Shown in pieces: positions 5,115-25,248 of a stretch of 25,632 nt of DNA. Location of the stretch: the NCBI GenBank assembly GCA_964562875.1, contig CAZLVM010000001.1:1-25632 (forward strand), given 5' to 3'. The notes beneath the pieces were generated by a model. The model did no database searches. It was not told where the DNA came from and saw nothing but the letters and a program-made list of their open reading frames with translations. The first letter of the stretch is position 1. Each line of letters begins with the position of its first letter. The position numbers and the translations under genes are program-made. This DNA comes from an uncultured Methanosarcinales archaeon. Its GTDB lineage: Archaea > Nanobdellota > Nanobdellia > Woesearchaeales > JAGWAF01.

Positions 5115-5208
5115 ACTCTTTTTTCCGTATTATTGGTATATAAGGTTTTCTATGAATATAAAAAACAAAAACCTTAATAAACAACCTAAAACACATTTTG
5201 TATTGCAT

Positions 5209-5298
5209 GTGCTCGTAGCCTAGCCTGGATAAGGCGTTAGCCTCCTACCATTTTTGGAAGAAAGCTAAAAATCCGGGGTTCGAATCCCCGCGGGCACG
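5209..5298 (+). tRNA. trnR: tRNA-Arg(CCU) with a 15-nt intron at the canonical 37/38 position (5248-5262)
   Basis: GTGCTCG TA GCCT AGCCTGGATA AGGC G TTAGC CT-CCT-A [CCATTTTTGGAAGAA] A GCTAA AAATC CGGGG TTCGAAT CCCCG CGGGCAC G. Mature length 75 nt, G discriminator, no CCA. Confidence 0.93.
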
Positions 5299-5400
5299 TT
5301 AGTGGCTGCGGCCTTCCAAACTTTGTTTGGATTTGCCGCGGGCACGTTAGTGGCTAAGGCTTTTTGAACTTTGTTCAAATTTGCCGCGGGCACGTTAGTG
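5288..5400 (+). repeat. Tandem 48-bp units: three copies of CCGCGGGCACGTTAGTG (tRNA 3' end plus trailer) separated by hairpin cassettes
   Basis: Copies start at 5288, 5336 and 5384. Hairpins TCCAAAC-TTT-GTTTGGA (5315-5331) and TTTGAAC-TTT-GTTCAAA (5363-5379). Confidence 0.95.
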
Positions 5401-14275: not shown

Positions 14276-14518
14276 TTACCCCCGTTTCCAGACAACAGCT
14301 CCTTTTTTCTTTACAATTCTTATTCTGTGCAGGGGAATCATTGCTTCTTCTTCACCCCGGTCAACAGCCATGAAACCTTCATCAATTCTTTTTATTTCTT
14401 CAAATTTAATCTCAATTATTTTTTTTAGAATTCTATCTTCATATCCTATTACATAATCAGAAGGATTTTCATTTTCATCCCATTTAATTTTGTTAATTAA
14501 CTCATGTATCGGTTGCAT
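14276..14518 (-). CDS. DUF504 / MJ1316-family protein (predicted RNA-end recognition)
   Basis: ELINKIKWD...YVIGYEDR...IPLHRIRIVKKKGAVVWKR matches the DUF504 (UPF0248) pattern. Confidence 0.85.
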   Translation of the reverse strand: MQPIHELINKIKWDENENPSDYVIGYEDRILKKIIEIKFEEIKRIDEGFMAVDRGEEEAMIPLHRIRIVKKKGAVVWKRG

Positions 14519-14520
14519 TT

Positions 14521-15798
14521 TTAGTAAAGAAATGATTTTGCATCGCTTCTTTCAGAAATCTCGCCTGCAACATTCTCTGCCATCATCTTTTTCACTTCAT
14601 TATTCTTTGTTGTATGGCCTAAAACCCAGCCAAGCTTTACATATGCTGTTTCAGGAAGCATGTCTTCTGCAAATATGCATCCAAGCTCAATTGAAAGCTT
14701 TCTTAGATTAGTGTAAACATATGGGTGAACCCTTCCGTAAATTGTTTGTGATGCAACAACTACACTTGTTCCTTTGTCAATTGCCTTTTTTATGTTGTCC
14801 AGTATATTTGTAGGCACATGCCCAAGGGCTGTTGCAGAGAGCACAATTCCTTTGTACCCTTTTTTCACGTAAAAGTCAATCACTTCACCGTCCATTCCGG
14901 GATAGATAATAACCATAGCTGTTTTTGCCTCGAACTTGTCATCAACCTTTGGCTTTCCTTCGCCTTTTTTTCTGTAATTTTTGTTGACAGCTTCAATTTT
15001 CCCTTCAGGATAGACTTTTGCAAGCGGCATTTCGTTTATTGGCCTGAATGCATCTCGTCTTGAGGTATGCATTTTTCTTGCCTTTGTTCCTCTGTTCAAT
15101 AAACAGTAATCGTCAGATGATGTTCCGTGCATGCAGGTCATTACTTCTGCAATGTCTGATTTTGCAGCTGCTGTTACTGCGCATATCAGGTTCATGAAAG
15201 CGTCTGAGCTTCCTCTGTCTATGCTTCTTTGAGCTGCTGTGATAATAACTGGCTTGTTTAAATCCCGAAGAAAGAATGAAAGGGCTGCAGCTGCAATGTG
15301 CAGTGTGTCTGTTCCCATTGTAAGCACAACTCCGTCAGAATCTTCCAGTTCTTTGACAACTTCTTTTGCCATTAAGCTCCATTCTTTGTTGGAAAAGTCT
15401 TCGCTCATGGTAGCTATTATTTTCCTTGCCTTGAGATTGGAAACCTTTGCAATTTCCGGCATCATCTGCACAAAATCTTCTGCAGTGTAATCAGCATGAA
15501 CTCCTCCTGTCTTGTAGTCTATCTTGGATGATATTGTTCCTCCTGTAGACAAAACAGAAACAGTTGGCAGTTTTTTGTCAAATGGGATCTTGGTCTTTTT
15601 CTCCTTTTTGGGCTTATACTCCTCAATAACTTTAATTTCTTTTATCTTTTTGTTTTCAACGCCAATGTTATATCCGTTGTCAAGCTTTACAACAGTAATA
15701 TTCTTGTCAAGAATCTCCGGCCTTGGCATAAGGATTCCTTCAAACTCTTCATCTTTTGTTGTTACCTTTACTCGGTCACCTGCTTTTGCGTCTGCCAT
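14521..15798 (-). CDS. gatD: Glu-tRNA(Gln) amidotransferase subunit D
   Basis: N-terminal VKLDNGYNIG, STGGTISSKIDY, GTDT, AAQRSIDRGSSD, RKMHTSRRDAF, DMLPETAYVKL. Confidence 0.97.
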   Translation of the reverse strand: MADAKAGDRVKVTTKDEEFEGILMPRPEILDKNITVVKLDNGYNIGVENKKIKEIKVIEEYKPKKEKKTKIPFDKKLPTVSVLSTGGTISSKIDYKTGGVHADYTAEDFVQMMPEIAKVSNLKARKIIATMSEDFSNKEWSLMAKEVVKELEDSDGVVLTMGTDTLHIAAAALSFFLRDLNKPVIITAAQRSIDRGSSDAFMNLICAVTAAAKSDIAEVMTCMHGTSSDDYCLLNRGTKARKMHTSRRDAFRPINEMPLAKVYPEGKIEAVNKNYRKKGEGKPKVDDKFEAKTAMVIIYPGMDGEVIDFYVKKGYKGIVLSATALGHVPTNILDNIKKAIDKGTSVVVASQTIYGRVHPYVYTNLRKLSIELGCIFAEDMLPETAYVKLGWVLGHTTKNNEVKKMMAENVAGEISERSDAKSFLY

Positions 15799-15852
15799 GG
15801 TTAAGAACTCAGGCCTTTTGGTATATAAATTTTGTTAAAGTTGGAGAAATCA

Positions 15853-15952
15853 TGCTGTTTGCACCAAGTAAATTACTAGTTTGGCTTATCTTTCTTTGTG
15901 TGATTCATTTTAGGGAGCAAAATCATAATAATCACGGAGCGTGCAAACAGCA
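15853..15952. repeat. Dispersed stem-closed element, copy D (divergent)
   Basis: Perfect 12-bp inverted repeat TGCTGTTTGCAC / GTGCAAACAGCA around a 76-nt interior with CAAGTAAATTAC, GTGTGATTCATTTT and CACGGAGC, matching the interiors of copies A-C. Confidence 0.8.
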
Positions 15953-15963
15953 CAGTTAAGAAA

Positions 15964-18258
15964 TCATCCAAAATAAGACGGCTTGTCTGCCTTCATTTCT
16001 TTTGCTTTTGCTGAAGAAAACTTGTCTTTGAGATCCTTGTACTCTTCTTCAATTTCTTTTGTTGCAGACGGCCTTACAATGCTGAAAGACTCATCAAAGT
16101 CAGCCATTGTAACTTCTTTTGCTTTGATATCTTTTCTTAGCGCGATTATTCCTGCTTCCCTGCATACTGCTTCTGTGTCTGCCCCCACATATCCTTCTGC
16201 TTTTTCAGCAAGTTTTGCAGCAGATACATCTTTTGCAAGAGGCATTCCCTTTAAGTGAATCTCAAATATTTTTTCTCTTGCTTTTTTGTCAGGCACAGAT
16301 GTTAGTATTATTCTGTCAAACCTTCCAGGCCTAAGCAGCGCAGTGTCAAGCATGTCCGGCCTATTTGTTGCAGCTATGATAACTATATCATTAAGCGCTT
16401 CAAGCCCGTCCATCTCTGTCAGCATTTGGTTAACTACTCTTTCTGTGACATGGGCATCTGAACTTGCGCTTCTCCTTGGCGCAAGCGAGTCTATCTCGTC
16501 AAAGAATATGATTGTTGGGGCTGTCTGCCTTGCCTTCTTAAAAATTTCCCTCACAGCCTTTTCACTTTCACCAACCCATTTTGAAAGCAGCTCAGGTCCT
16601 TTAACAAGTATGAAGTTTGATTCTGATTCAGTTGCAATTGCCTTTGCAAGCATTGTTTTCCCTGTTCCTGGAGCGCCGTAAAGTAAAATACCCTTTGGAG
16701 GCTTAACCCCTATTCTTTTGAAGATTTCAGGGTTTTTCAGAGGCCATTCAACAGCCTCTTTCAGCTGCTGCTTAACTTGGTCAAGCCCGCCAATCTGGCT
16801 CCACTTGACATTAGGCGACTCAATGAGCACTTCCCTTAATGCAGAAGGCCTTACAACCTTTAGTGATTCCTTGAAATCATCTCTTGTAATCTTTAGATTT
16901 TCAAGCACACTCTGAGGTATTGTATCTTCCTTGCCATACCTAAGATCGGGCAATAGCCGCCTTAGCACTACCATTGCAGCCTCTTTTGCCAGGCTCGCAA
17001 GGTCTGCCCCAACAAAGCCATGCGTTACTCTCGCTATCTCATTGAGATTTACATCCTTGTCAAGCGGCATATTTCTTGTGTGAATCTTAAGAACATTTTC
17101 CCTTCCTGTTTTGTCAGGAACGCCTATCTCTATCTCCCTGTCAAACCTTCCAGGCCTTCTCAATGCAGGGTCAAGTATGTTAGGCACGTTTGTTGCTGCA
17201 ATAACAACAATCTTTCCCCTGTTCTGCAGGCCGTCCATCAGCGAAAGCAGCTGGGCAACAACCCTTCTTTCAACTTCCCCTTTTGTCTCTTCCCTTTTTG
17301 ATGCTATTGCATCTATTTCGTCTATAAATATGATTGATGGAGCATTTTTTTCTGCATCTTCGAATATTTTTCTTAAGTTCTCTTCTGATTGACCGTAGAA
17401 CTTGCTCATGATTTCAGGGCCGTTGATAACAACAAAATGTGATGATGTTTCGTTTGCAACTGCTTTGGCAAGAAGTGTTTTTCCTGTTCCAGGAGGTCCG
17501 TGAAGCAGAACTCCTTTTGGAGGTTCTATGCCCAGTCTTTCAAACAGCTCGGGATGCTTCAATGGAAGCTCAACCATTTCCCTGATTTTTTTGACTTCAT
17601 CATGAAGCCCGCCTATGTCTTCATAGCTGACTTCGGGAATTGTCTCTTCCTTAACCTCAACTGCCTCTGGATTGAATACAATCTCTGTTTCATCGCTGAT
17701 TATGACTGCCTGTTTAGGGGTTGTTTCTGTAACAACAAATTTTATGTCTCCAAATCCAAACCCTATTCCGCCCATCATGCTTTCATCAAGCATTGAGAAT
17801 ATGTCGTCAAATGGACTGCCGCTCATGGTGCTTCTTCTTGTTCTTGTGCCTCCAAGGGATATGATGTCTCCCTTGATTACAGCTCTTCCAAGAAGCCCGT
17901 GTTTGAATACAGTTGGGGAAGCCTTAATCATGACGCTCTTTATTGCAGGGGCTATTATCACCTTCTTGGCTTCCTTTACATCAGACCTTCTTACTTTTAC
18001 CTGCTCGCCTATGGATGACTTGGCATTCCTTCGTGTGAGCCCGTCCATCCTTATTATACTAATTCCTATGTCTCCTGGATAGGCTCTGTCAACAATGGCT
18101 ACGCTTGTATTCTCCCCTTCAATTTCAACAATCTCGCCAGGTCTTGTGCCTATTTCTTTCATAAAATTAGAATCAATTCTAACAATGCCTTTATTTACAT
18201 CATCCTGGATTGCTTCAGCAACCTTCAGCTTTATTTCCTTTGATGATTTGGCTATCAT
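15964..18258 (-). CDS. cdc48: CDC48/VCP (VAT) AAA+ ATPase
   Basis: N-domain, two Walker A motifs ([16 protein letters not shown]), two Walker B motifs (IFIDEID, IFFDEID), RPGRFDR twice, C-terminal YFG. Confidence 0.98.
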
Positions 18259-18921: not shown

Positions 18922-19947
18922 ATGCTAAAAACAAACGTGGATGATGTATATCCTTACAAGGTGGTAAGCCCGATTAACCTAGACCATTTGCCGGAAGTGC
19001 AGGGCTATGATTTTGAGGAAAGCTTTGATTTTTCAAAGTTCATAAGCGCATACAAGTCAACTGCATTCCAGGCAACTCATTTTGGCATGGCTGTTGATAT
19101 AGTAAAGAGGATGCAGGAGGACAAAGCATTCATCTTCTTGAGCTGCACCTCAAATATTATAAGCTCAGGCCTTAGGGAAATAGTGAAGTTTCTTGTAAAA
19201 AATAACCATATCAATTTTGTAGTTACTTCCGCAGGCGGTATAGAGGAAGACCTCATAAAGAGCCTCAAGCCTTTCCATCTCGGCACATTTGACATAAAAG
19301 GCAAGATGCTGTTTGAAAAGGGCATAGCAAGGATTGGCAATATATTTGTGCCGACTGACAGGTACACATATTTTGAGAAGTTCATGGAGCCCGTGTTTAA
19401 GGAGATTTATGCAGAACAGAAAAAAATAGGAAGGCCTCTATGTTCTTCAGAAATAACAAAAATCCTTGGGAAGAGCATAAGCCACGAGGATTCATTTCTT
19501 TACTGGGCATACAAAAATGACATTCCAGTGGTTTGCCCGGCTATTATGGACGGCTCTTTTGGGGACTTGGCGCATTTCTTCAAGAAAAGAAATCCTGATT
19601 TTGCGATAGATGTTACTCAGGATACTGAAGCAATACTAAGATGCGTTGAGGAAGCTGGCAAGACCGCAATCATCTCTCTTGGCGGTGGCGTTGCAAAGCA
19701 CTTTATCCTCAACGCAAACATATTCAGGGAGGGTGTTGACTATGCTGTTTATATCACAACAGCTCAGGATTTTGACGGCTCTGATTCAGGAGGGAGCACA
19801 GAAGAGGCAATAAGCTGGGCAAAGATAAAGCCTGATGCAATGCATGTCAAGATTAATGCGGATGCCACTCTTATTTTCCCTTTACTTGTCGCAGCCACGT
19901 TTGCGCAAAAGCAAAATAATAAAAACAACAGCGCACAGAAGGAATAG
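18922..19947 (+). CDS. dys: Deoxyhypusine synthase
   Basis: GYDF, FQATHFG, TSNIISSGLRE, TSAGGIEED, RIGNIFVP, LGGGVAKH, FDGSDSG, EAISWAK (catalytic Lys position). Confidence 0.95.
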   Translation: MLKTNVDDVYPYKVVSPINLDHLPEVQGYDFEESFDFSKFISAYKSTAFQATHFGMAVDIVKRMQEDKAFIFLSCTSNIISSGLREIVKFLVKNNHINFVVTSAGGIEEDLIKSLKPFHLGTFDIKGKMLFEKGIARIGNIFVPTDRYTYFEKFMEPVFKEIYAEQKKIGRPLCSSEITKILGKSISHEDSFLYWAYKNDIPVVCPAIMDGSFGDLAHFFKKRNPDFAIDVTQDTEAILRCVEEAGKTAIISLGGGVAKHFILNANIFREGVDYAVYITTAQDFDGSDSGGSTEEAISWAKIKPDAMHVKINADATLIFPLLVAATFAQKQNNKNNSAQKE

Positions 19948-21846: not shown

Positions 21847-21858
21847 AAAAATAGGCTG

Positions 21859-22031
21859 TTGCCACCAAGCTAATAAGAGCCAATGCTGCCCAGCAAACAA
21901 GAGTCATTGCCACCCAGCGAAGTACTTAATCTAAAGATTGTTTAACACGTGGGACTCCTTTGAAGAAGAAATAAAATATCAACACGTAGCGTGGCAATGA
22001 CTCAGAACTATTTTATCACAAAGCGTGGCAA
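21859..22031. repeat. Degenerate outer shell of the dispersed element, enclosing copy A
   Basis: TTGCCAC-CAAGC at 21859-21870 and AGC-GTGGCAA at 22022-22031. A second left arm AGCCAATGCTGC at 21878-21889 is identical to the copy-C left arm. Confidence 0.75.
21901..22003. repeat. Dispersed stem-closed element, copy A
   Basis: 13-bp inverted repeat GAGTCATTGCCAC / GTGGCAATGACTC around a 77-nt interior CCAGCGAAGTAC...ACGTGGGACTCCTTT...CACGTAGC. Confidence 0.9.
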
Positions 22032-22037
22032 TTGCCT

Positions 22038-22133
22038 CCATTGCCACCTAGCGAAGTACACAATCTAAACATTCTTCTGCACGTGACTCCTTTCAGGAAG
22101 CATGAATAAAAGCAGCACGAAGCGTGGCAATGG
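22038..22133. repeat. Dispersed stem-closed element, copy B
   Basis: 10-bp inverted repeat CCATTGCCAC / GTGGCAATGG around a 76-nt interior CTAGCGAAGTAC...ACGTGACTCCTTT...CACGAAGC. Confidence 0.9.
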
Positions 22134-22171
22134 TAGAAAAATATTTATACTATGCTTCTTAAAATTAAAGC

Positions 22172-22483
22172 ATGAAAATAACTATAGACACAAAAGAGGA
22201 TTCAAAAGAGGAAATCAAGAAGGCAATAAGTTTCCTTTCATCTCTTAGCGACGGAACTATCTATACAAACTGTGCAAATAATGAAAAGCCTTCCCATCAA
22301 AAGGATATATTTTCGGATGACCCATCACCTGAAGTGGGGGGAGGAATGTTCAGCATGTTTGGCAGCTCTTCATCTCCAGCCCAGGATTCTCCGTCAGATT
22401 CTTCTGCTGAAACAACAGTAGTTCTGGAAGAGGAAAAGAAAGAGCCTAAAAAAAAGCCTGAAATACAGGTAATTGAGTATTAA
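22172..22483 (+). CDS. Hypothetical protein, 103 aa, with low-complexity S/D/P/E middle
   Basis: TTTATAC at 22144-22150 upstream; 1-nt gap to archease, so it is the first gene of the archease-rtcB operon. Confidence 0.8.
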   Translation: MKITIDTKEDSKEEIKKAISFLSSLSDGTIYTNCANNEKPSHQKDIFSDDPSPEVGGGMFSMFGSSSSPAQDSPSDSSAETTVVLEEEKKEPKKKPEIQVIEY

Positions 22484-22484
22484 G

Positions 22485-22916
22485 ATGAAACAATACGAGT
22501 TTCTAGAGCACACTGCAGACGCCAAGTTTAAGGCTTATGGAAATGATTTTGGAGAGGCATTTTCAAACGCTGCAAAGGCTATGGTTTCACTGATGTATGA
22601 TTCTGAACTTGTTGCAGCATCTCACATAGAGGAGATAAAAGCTGAAGGCAAGGACATGGGCCAGCTTCTTTACAAGTTTCTTGAGGAATTTCTTTTTCTG
22701 CAGGATTCAAAGCAGTTTGTGCTTCACGGCTTTCCAAAGGAAATAAAGATAATGGAATCAAAAGGAAAATTCTCGCTGAAGGCAGAAGCCACCGGAGACT
22801 ATCTTGACAAGACAGATGAAAAATATGAGGTAAGCCCTGTTGTCAAGGCAGTAACTTACAATGAAATGAAAATAAGCGAAAAACCTTTATATGTGCAGGT
22901 AGTTCTTGACATCTAA
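22485..22916 (+). CDS. Archease (RtcB cofactor)
   Basis: YEFLEHTADAKFKAYG N-terminus, VKAVTYNEM, C-terminal VVLDI; adjacent to rtcB. Confidence 0.93.
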   Translation: MKQYEFLEHTADAKFKAYGNDFGEAFSNAAKAMVSLMYDSELVAASHIEEIKAEGKDMGQLLYKFLEEFLFLQDSKQFVLHGFPKEIKIMESKGKFSLKAEATGDYLDKTDEKYEVSPVVKAVTYNEMKISEKPLYVQVVLDI

Positions 22917-24346
22917 TGGAAAAGGTTGAGCTTGAGAAAGAGAGCGAATTTGTTTGGAAAATTCCAAAAACTGGCTCTATGAATGTTCCTGCAGTAGTTT
23001 ATGCTTCTGACAAGCTTATGGAAAACATAAAGCAGGATTTGACTCTTCAGCAGATAAGGAATGTGGCGTGCCTTAAGGGAATACAGAAGAATGCTATTGC
23101 GCTTCCTGACTCCCACCAGGGATATGGGTTTAACATAGGCGGTGTAGCTGCCTTTGACATGAACGAAGGAGTGATTTCTCCAGGCGGAGTTGGCTATGAC
23201 ATCAACTGCGGAGTAAGGATGCTCAGGACTGACATGACTGCAGATGAGCTTTTGAAAAAAAAGAATGAAATTATTGAGGAGTTGTTCAAGGAGATACCTG
23301 CAGGTGTTGGAAAGGGCGGTTCTACAAAGTTAACAAAGGATAGTCTTATGGAAGCTCTTGAAAAAGGTCCTGAGTGGGCTCTCAAGGAAGGCTATGGTAA
23401 AAAAGAAGACTTGGAAAGAACAGAAGAAGATGGAAGAATGAAGGACGCTGATCCTTCAAAGGTTTCCCAGAGGGCAATTGCAAGGGGAATGCCTCAGCTG
23501 GGGACATTGGGAGCTGGAAATCATTTTATTGAGCTTCAGAAAGTTGACAAAATCTATGACGAGAAAGTTGCAAAGGCGTTTGGCATAGAAAAGGAAGGCC
23601 AGGTTACAATGATGATTCACTGCGGAAGCAGGGGCTTGGGCCATCAGGTTGCTTCTGATTATATTCAGTCAATGGAAAACAAGTTTGGCATAGAAGGCCT
23701 GCCTGACAGGGAGCTAATCAACGCTCCAATACAATCAGATCTTGGTCAGGATTATTACAAGGCAATGTGCTGTGCAATAAATTATGCTTTTGCAAACAGG
23801 CATTTGATAATGCACTGGGCAAGGGAAAGCTTTGAAAAAATATTTGGTTCTTCAGATGGCATGGACATGATATATGATGTCTGTCATAACATTGCAAAGT
23901 TTGAGAATCATGAGATTGACGGCAAGAAAACAAAGGTTTGCATTCATAGAAAGGGCGCAACAAGAAGCTTTGGCCCTGGAAGGGAAGAAATTCCTGATGT
24001 TTATAGAAATGTTGGCCAGCCTGTCATAATTCCCGGAAGCATGGGCACTGCATCATACCTTCTTGTAGGTACAAAAAAGGCAGAGGAGCTTTCGTTTGGA
24101 AGCACTGCTCACGGCGCAGGAAGGCTGTTGTCAAGGCATGCTGCAATGAGATTAAAGAGGGGAGAGCAGGTTAAGAAAGACCTTGAGGCAAAGGGAATTA
24201 CTGTCAAGGGAGCATCAATGAAAGGCCTTGCAGAGGAAATGCCTGAAGCCTACAAGGATATTGATGAGGTTGTTCGTGTTTCTGACTCTCTTGGTCTTGC
24301 AAAAAAAGTGGCAAGAGTTGTTCCTTTAGAAGTAATCAAGGGTTAA
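22916..24346 (+). CDS. rtcB: tRNA-splicing ligase RtcB
   Basis: PDSHQGYGF, GYDINCG, GAGNHFIE, HCGSRGLGH, DVCHNIAK, HRKGATR, STAHGAGR. TAATG coupling to archease. Confidence 0.98.
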   Translation: MEKVELEKESEFVWKIPKTGSMNVPAVVYASDKLMENIKQDLTLQQIRNVACLKGIQKNAIALPDSHQGYGFNIGGVAAFDMNEGVISPGGVGYDINCGVRMLRTDMTADELLKKKNEIIEELFKEIPAGVGKGGSTKLTKDSLMEALEKGPEWALKEGYGKKEDLERTEEDGRMKDADPSKVSQRAIARGMPQLGTLGAGNHFIELQKVDKIYDEKVAKAFGIEKEGQVTMMIHCGSRGLGHQVASDYIQSMENKFGIEGLPDRELINAPIQSDLGQDYYKAMCCAINYAFANRHLIMHWARESFEKIFGSSDGMDMIYDVCHNIAKFENHEIDGKKTKVCIHRKGATRSFGPGREEIPDVYRNVGQPVIIPGSMGTASYLLVGTKKAEELSFGSTAHGAGRLLSRHAAMRLKRGEQVKKDLEAKGITVKGASMKGLAEEMPEAYKDIDEVVRVSDSLGLAKKVARVVPLEVIKG

Positions 24347-25092: not shown

Positions 25093-25248
25093 CATTGCCA
25101 CCAAGCGAAGAATAGCCAATGCTGCCAAGCGAAGTACTGTCTTTAAACATTAATTTCTGCGTGTGACTCCTTTTTAGAATAAATAACACCATTAACACGG
25201 AGCGCAGAATTGGCTAAAAAAAGAACAAAAACACAGAGCGTGGCAATG
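25093..25248. repeat. Outer shell of the dispersed element, enclosing copy C
   Basis: CATTGCCAC-CAAGCGAAG at 25093-25110 and AGC-GTGGCAATG at 25237-25248. Confidence 0.85.
25114..25215. repeat. Dispersed stem-closed element, copy C
   Basis: 11/12-bp inverted repeat AGCCAATGCTGC / GCAGAATTGGCT around a 78-nt interior CAAGCGAAGTAC...GTGTGACTCCTTT...CACGGAGC. Confidence 0.9.

Follow-up and report, generated by a model that had tools for sequence, protein, structure and literature searches.

Copy D, at positions 15853..15952 on the + strand of the window (i.e., the whole 25,632-nt stretch of DNA analysed here), belongs genuinely to a family of ~100-nt intergenic repeats, within which it is old and diverged. 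Pairing of the terminal stem is preserved in this family, and the arm sequence itself is not conserved. Our preferred explanation, to which we give a little less than an even chance, is that the family is a fold-recognised, REPIN/MITE-like interspersed non-coding repeat of ~100 nt that has become scattered between genes in some Woesearchaeota/Nanoarchaeia genomes.

The arms of copy D, TGCTGTTTGCAC (15853-15864) and GTGCAAACAGCA (15941-15952), are perfect 12-bp complements separated by a 76-nt interior, and the TTGCCAC arm found elsewhere in the window is absent from D, all as described in an earlier note on this DNA. Inside the stem on the + strand, the 5' arm is followed by a CAA bulge (15865-15867) and a degenerate 5' box, GUAAAUUACU (15868-15877), and the 3' arm is preceded by the 3' box, (AU)CACGGAGC (15931-15940). 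The bulge is followed by a G-C pair and then a U.G pair. Perfect inverted repeats of this kind (at least 12 bp with a loop of 40-120 nt) occur only twice in the window, in copy D and in the inner copy of composite A (A_inner), and 200 shuffles of the window contained 0.14 12-mers on average. Within the deoxyhypusine synthase ORF there is another perfect inverted repeat, of 11 bp with a 53-nt loop (19642-19652 / 19706-19716), which is unrelated to the family. A 35-codon ORF with a hydrophobic core, MLFAPSKLLVWLIFLCVIHFREQNHNNHGACKQHS, covers copy D exactly (15852-15959); we rejected the idea of a small protein because the same frame is closed in copy B, and the ORF is probably accidental.

The family membership of copy D was assessed with R1, a covariance model trained only on A_inner (21903-22002), B (22037-22136) and C_inner (25115-25214), i.e., without D. 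Its structure contains the terminal helix and two adjacent G-C pairs only. In a search of the window with filters off, R1 gave copy D a score of 56.0 bits (E=4.7e-12). Reverse-strand matches to the three training copies aside, nothing else in the window exceeded 8.7 bits, and the highest score across 175 kb of related metagenome loci was 15.7 bits. The outcome that the earlier note had named as refuting its claim, a score for D no better than that of chance intergenic DNA, did not occur. That note had also expected a plain repeat search to miss D, but such a search recovers D via its interior (as family D3).

Copy D has diverged further than any other copy: its identity to every other copy is 61-66%, and other pairs of copies reach 85-92%. 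In a gapless register with the other copies, both partners differ in five of the 12 stem pairs, and seven of the 12 arm positions are the same as in copy A. The stem had been called completely replaced, which overstates the change by those seven positions. However, the compensatory change is real, with five doubly changed pairs and perfect pairing throughout. A perfect 12-bp stem in such an old copy is hard to explain without either selection on pairing or a renewal mechanism. In run X1, a strain variant of D differs at two positions of the 5' arm while its 3' arm is unaltered, so both changes are one-sided: 15864 C>T gives a T.G wobble and 15854 G>A gives an A.C mismatch.

The other copies in the window are also on the + strand. 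Composite A (21858..22032) contains an outer 5' half, GTTGCCAC-CAA-GC (21858-21870), a second 5' half, CCAATGCTGC-CCA-GC (21880-21894), a full inner copy (21901-22003) with a 13-bp stem, GAGTCATTGCCAC/GTGGCAATGACTC, and an orphan or outer 3' half, ATCACAAAGC-GTGGCAAT (22015-22032). Copy B (22038..22133) has the stem CCATTGCCAC/GTGGCAATGG, a CUA bulge and two intact boxes. In composite C (25093..25248), which abuts the Sua5 stop codon, an outer stem (25093-25101 / 25240-25248) and its outer boxes, CAAGCGAAGAAUAG and CACAGAGC, surround a full inner copy (25113-25216) whose stem, TAGCCAATGCTGC/GCAGAATTGGCTA, has one G.A mismatch. A run X1 contig from the same sample skips exactly 31 nt (22008-22038), which corresponds to the orphan/outer 3' half of composite A; either an indel of this half element segregates in the population, or a second, near-identical locus gave rise to the contig.

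Several other features of the window are worth recording. Genes for RNA end healing and ligation lie near the elements, at 14276-14518 and 22172-24346 (an MJ1316 cyclic-end recognition domain, archease and RtcB), and an unannotated 103-aa ORF precedes the archease. The window is archaeal. An intron-containing tRNA-Gly(TCC) is at 5208-5299, and after it comes a 48-nt tandem duplication of the tRNA's 3' end (5279-5326 and 5327-5374, 79% identical) that looks like an integration (att) scar.

Outside the window, a strict three-block pattern had no matches in metagenome contigs. A looser pattern, scanned against one genome per species, matched 42 loci, 21 of which are in four archaeal genomes: CAYPXA01, JANQNG01 (Nanoarchaeia PL23a_bin.67), JANQNE01 and one Nanoarchaeota single-cell genome. 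The other 21 are in GC-rich bacteria and are chance matches, none of which fits the covariance models. On the archaeal loci, R1 gave 32 matches at E<=0.01, two of them reverse-strand echoes of true copies. The number of other Nanoarchaeia or Woesearchaeota-like genomes with the family is thus four or more, and the CAYPXA01 MAG (metagenome-assembled genome) has at least 13 pattern-matching copies. A stricter run with the window included produced an alignment of 32 copies (A6).

The distribution of the family is patchy. CAYPXA01 contains the family, and its GatD appears only ~65% identical to that of the window, yet the window and CAYPXA copies have ~75-80% interior identity. No copies were found in 175 kb from 24 GatD relatives with 57-75% identity. 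The best named matches to the window's GatD, at no more than 76% identity, are labelled Candidatus Woesearchaeota. The CAYPXA01 MAG is titled 'uncultured Methanosarcinales archaeon', and the 65% identical GatD homologue that appears to be its own sits among matches of which nearly all the named ones are Woesearchaeota; a wrong taxonomic label or a mixed bin is possible. Phage records, plasmid records and viral contigs contained no match to the element. With Rfam 15, only two tRNAs in the window reach the gathering threshold, and at E<=10 the A/B region has noise matches only. Searches of the literature by word and by sequence string found no description of the family.

Maintenance of stem pairing is evident in A6. 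Its 32 copies have 96.7% pairing in the terminal stem, where nine of the ten pairs show double changes (49 cells). None of 500 shuffles reaches the observed covariation, and in slid controls, where the partner is shifted by 1-3 columns, fewer than 48% of cells pair. The 31 copies with complete stems have 20 distinct stem versions, and the outermost pairs are the most variable. Stems differ widely in a single genome (e.g., GCACTACTGC, GCAATGCCTC, GCATCACTGC and ACAACACCAC). The first of these occurs three times and the second twice, at separate loci, and such recurrence of a stem version at several loci of one genome indicates subfamilies. Copy D had been put forward as the best single piece of evidence for compensatory change, but the JANQNG copies hold many more independent stem variants. 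The pairs that are not Watson-Crick comprise four G.T and three C.A. Since there is no excess of G.U among the stem mismatches, neither strand is marked as RNA, and folding z-scores are also alike on the + and - strands.

Two boxes beside the stem are the other conserved part of the element. On the 5' side, the stem is followed by a C-N-A bulge and then GCGAAGUACU across lineages, and on the 3' side, ACACG-N-AGC is followed by the stem. The interior is specific to each lineage, with GUGACUCC common to the window and CAYPXA copies, and UAUAAUCGC-type sequence in the JANQNG copies. In the JANQNG, JANQNE and JBHPGL records, the interiors are unrelated while both stem-flanking boxes are retained, so the boxes and the helix together form the conserved unit. 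The earlier note had proposed that the interior, not the arm sequence, is what is recognised. The second half of this proposal agrees with the variable arms, but the first does not agree with interiors that are unrelated in other genomes despite the kept boxes.

We obtained the structure of the base of the element from RNAalifold on 22 copies and from inspection. A terminal helix of 9-15 bp joins the ends of the element, and inward of it are the 3-nt C-N-A bulge on the 5' strand, a G-C and a C-G pair, and a purine-rich 3x3 internal loop in which GAA is opposite G-N-A. Beyond this loop there are two or three pairs, GU(A) with (C)AC (G-C and U-A by RNAalifold), and then the remaining interior of ~55 nt, which is particular to each lineage. 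In the beta subtype (GUUA with AAC), the next A.C juxtaposition becomes a U-A pair. No interior helix is supported by covariation in the family alignments. This includes the inner helix described for copy D, GTGATT (15900-15905) with AATCAC (15930-15935): the pairing is present, but its GUG/CAC core, which is common to the family, never varies, and its AUU/AAU extension is private to D.

Every one of the ~36 copies lies between genes, and the distance to a stop codon is often 0-35 nt. Relative to the nearest gene end, ~11 are co-directional and nine are convergent. We found no fixed-distance promoter and no consistent oligo-T terminator at 29 loci: TATA-like words occur in the -35 to -22 window of two of them, and oligo-T occurs within 15 nt downstream of three. 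An independent archaeal sRNA gene was rejected on these counts.

The element could nevertheless be transcribed by read-through from its neighbours. It would then be a new class of structured RNA with its fold under selection, in which the terminal helix and boxes serve as a module for protein binding or processing (e.g., endonuclease release or circularisation). We regard this as a serious rival, though a less probable one than the repeat explanation. The strong stem covariation suits it, and a 3-nt bulge with a free middle base beside a 3x3 purine loop is typical of RNA internal-loop motifs. It is also consistent with the two-layer stem-plus-box architecture common to the window and CAYPXA genomes, with the similarity of interiors between hosts whose GatD differs substantially, and with the 5' box of copy D, where a C-to-U change retains a U.G pair on the + strand. 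Against it, there is no promoter or terminator at a fixed distance, and the copies face both ways relative to the genes that would need to transcribe them. The stem has no enrichment of G.U over C.A, z-scores of folding do not distinguish the strands, interior helices are without covariation support, Rfam has no match even at E<=10, and the canonical bulge-helix-bulge motif is absent. A patchy, high-copy and decaying distribution is, moreover, typical of selfish repeats. Three RNA runs from the source study contained nothing mapping to the elements.

Proximity to stop codons raises a different possibility, that these are hairpins co-opted by the host and working in either orientation, as 3'-end exonuclease stops or as insulators of transcription units like bacterial REP. 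Copy D would then stabilise the 3' end of the cdc48 mRNA. About 18 of 29 loci are within 40 nt of a stop codon, copy D ends 11 nt from that of cdc48, C abuts that of Sua5, and a perfect Watson-Crick stem folds in the transcript of either strand. We nonetheless consider such a role unlikely, because in a compact genome any intergenic insert is expected near a stop codon, asymmetric conserved boxes are needless for this purpose, and relatives with the cdc48-gatD arrangement manage without the element. Termination in archaea is generally ascribed to oligo-T tracts, which do not accompany the copies.

A separate reading makes copy D a specific cis-regulator of cdc48 or gatD, and the earlier note had suggested effects on cdc48 3'-end formation or gatD expression. 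Position is what favours it: D lies between gatD (14521..15798, - strand; Pfam GatD_N and Asparaginase domains) on its left and a cdc48-type AAA ATPase gene (15964..18258, - strand; Pfam CDC48_N and two AAA domains), both outside the element. However, D is antisense to both genes, the TATA-like box of gatD is outside D, and elsewhere the same element lies beside unrelated genes in both orientations. The same note had pointed to the cdc48-gatD gap in relatives. Six relatives with 58-75% identical GatD keep the adjacency, but their gaps hold other sequence and no element (the gap in L066 and L059 appears to hold a small ORF, parvulin-like by eye). D is therefore a lineage-specific insert and not a conserved regulator of either gene, and we judge specific regulation to be very improbable.

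The preferred explanation, a dispersed repeat, draws on how the copies are placed. The family is dispersed to unlinked loci, and the dispersal looks recent, since identity reaches 88-92% between copies that lie on different contigs and have unrelated flanks. It is patchily distributed across relatives. Both CAYPXA and the window (in A and C) also have copies placed in tandem with a few bases between them, orphan halves from either the 5' or the 3' side, and copies that appear nested in two or three layers. In contigs from the source community, depth at A/B and C is 3-5x the nearby level and there is no rise at D, so more copies of the common subtypes exist and D has no close paralogue.

Two other recurrent arrangements were seen. 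In JANQNG, an alpha-type copy on the + strand is found with a beta-type copy on the - strand, 30-60 nt apart, at three unrelated loci (L008:5145-5399, L023:2354-2598 and L022:3013-3241), which suggests a composite unit of ~250 nt. In CAYPXA, a second recurrent sequence, GTTTTGGCYTTAAGCAARGCAATG, is a few bases downstream of several copies (L004, L024, L001 and L031) and looks like a degenerate orphan 3' half.

If the family is mobile, as its dispersal suggests, we propose that the element is copied or moved while folded and single-stranded, either as ssDNA (as in REP/REPIN and IS200/IS605-type systems) or via an RNA intermediate. An enzyme encoded in trans would recognise the junction boxes together with the helix geometry, whatever the bases in the helix. 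Since the helix sequence would be unread, the arms could drift freely as long as they still paired, which would give rise to the stem subfamilies within genomes and to the five compensated pairs of copy D. Against this, no transposase, integrase, reverse transcriptase or HUH nuclease genes were found in the window or beside sampled copies (10 sampled neighbours), where the neighbours are ordinary genes. There is no target-site duplication, i.e., no direct repeat at the stem boundaries, in 32 copies. No empty-site alleles were found in contigs from eight DNA runs, which are short and break at repeats. Insertion of the element into pre-existing hairpins is unsupported: we found no empty hairpin, i.e., no common stem with a short loop and no element.

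Further observations also run against the repeat explanation. The outermost bases are the least conserved, unlike those of terminal repeats bound by a transposase. RNA is a likelier setting than DNA, by appearance, for a conserved loop with purines facing purines and for a bulge whose middle base is free. The interior identity between window and CAYPXA copies, despite an apparent GatD identity of ~65%, could reflect functional constraint and not transfer. A broader proposal is that some undescribed DPANN machinery acting on RNA or ssDNA recognises the stem-plus-box module. This could be a REPIN-like system driven by a domesticated nuclease of a kind not yet described, or a structured RNA of a new class that is excised and perhaps circularised; in both cases the structure of the helix and not its sequence would be read, and modules could be stacked in two or three layers. 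We offer this tentatively, as a minority possibility.

The family matters for several reasons. DPANN genomes are very small and tightly packed, yet there are four structured-repeat loci in 10 kb of the window. Covariation across the family is clean evidence of a fold, and neither Rfam nor the literature that was searched contains that fold. Should the element be mobile, fold-recognised repeats of the REPIN-like kind would extend to ultra-small archaea, and an enzyme yet to be identified would be implied. Should it be an RNA, it would be a new motif whose protein-binding core is compact and open to testing. In annotation, the element accounts for the broken contigs and local peaks of depth in these metagenome assemblies, and it is a warning against reading individual copies as gene-specific regulators.

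Among known RNAs, box C/D sRNAs and other K-turn RNAs come nearest, as they too have a variable terminal stem that unites 5' and 3' boxes, with G.A/A.G purines beside a 3-nt bulge. However, the boxes of our element are not RUGAUGA/CUGA, and its interiors are not guide-like, since they are conserved among paralogues. A K-turn proper was rejected: two G-C pairs split the bulge from the purine loop, and in the alignments the base opposite the loop's middle A is N. A substrate of the archaeal splicing endonuclease was also rejected, as 16 copies with flanks have no conserved bulge-helix-bulge (BHB) and the opposite loop is a symmetric 3x3. H/ACA does not fit because there is no ANA box after the stem, and readings as a hammerhead, twister or hairpin ribozyme, 5S rRNA or tRNA-like RNA are unsupported from sequence and have no Rfam match. 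The stem with C-N-AGCG resembles the a2-UAGC context (branching G, AGC) of retron msr-msd RNA. The window and the sampled neighbours contain no RT gene, the element is present in numerous copies, and its interior is too short for msr plus msd.

Integron attC sites, which are recognised by fold rather than sequence, share with the element a stem with extrahelical bases, an unpaired central spacer, a variable apex, a length of 57-141 nt and a position just after stop codons. The element differs in having no R''/R' boxes (RYYYAAC / GTTRRRY) and in having its conserved part internal to the stem instead of terminal. Its copies also have housekeeping genes as neighbours and face either way, whereas attC sites form co-oriented cassette arrays by an integrase gene.

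MITEs, including archaeal ones, are likewise small, non-coding and intergenic, with terminal inverted repeats, tandem or nested arrangements and lineage-specific bursts. In contrast to them, the element has terminal repeats that vary between copies of one genome, with the outermost bases least conserved, and no parent IS with matching ends was found. A MITE in the strict sense was rejected because the terminal repeats are not conserved in sequence and target-site duplication is absent.

The closest known system in logic is the bacterial REP/REPIN, which is mobilised by RAYT, an IS200/IS605-like Y1 HUH transposase. No RAYT-like (Y1 transposase) gene was found in the window or among 10 sampled neighbours. 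The element's arms (e.g., CATTGCCACCNAGCGAAGTAC) differ from those of REP in that they are not self-complementary and have no GTAG. Its host is a DPANN archaeon, its boxes are asymmetric (the 5' box is unlike the 3' box) and it has a 3-nt bulge. The two also have much in common: both are short, multi-copy, non-coding intergenic repeats that form a hairpin of ~100 nt from two inverted arms and a less conserved spacer (~70 nt). Both also maintain pairing by compensatory change, carry a small conserved sequence beside a variable palindrome, and occur as singlets (half copies) and in clusters without target-site duplication.
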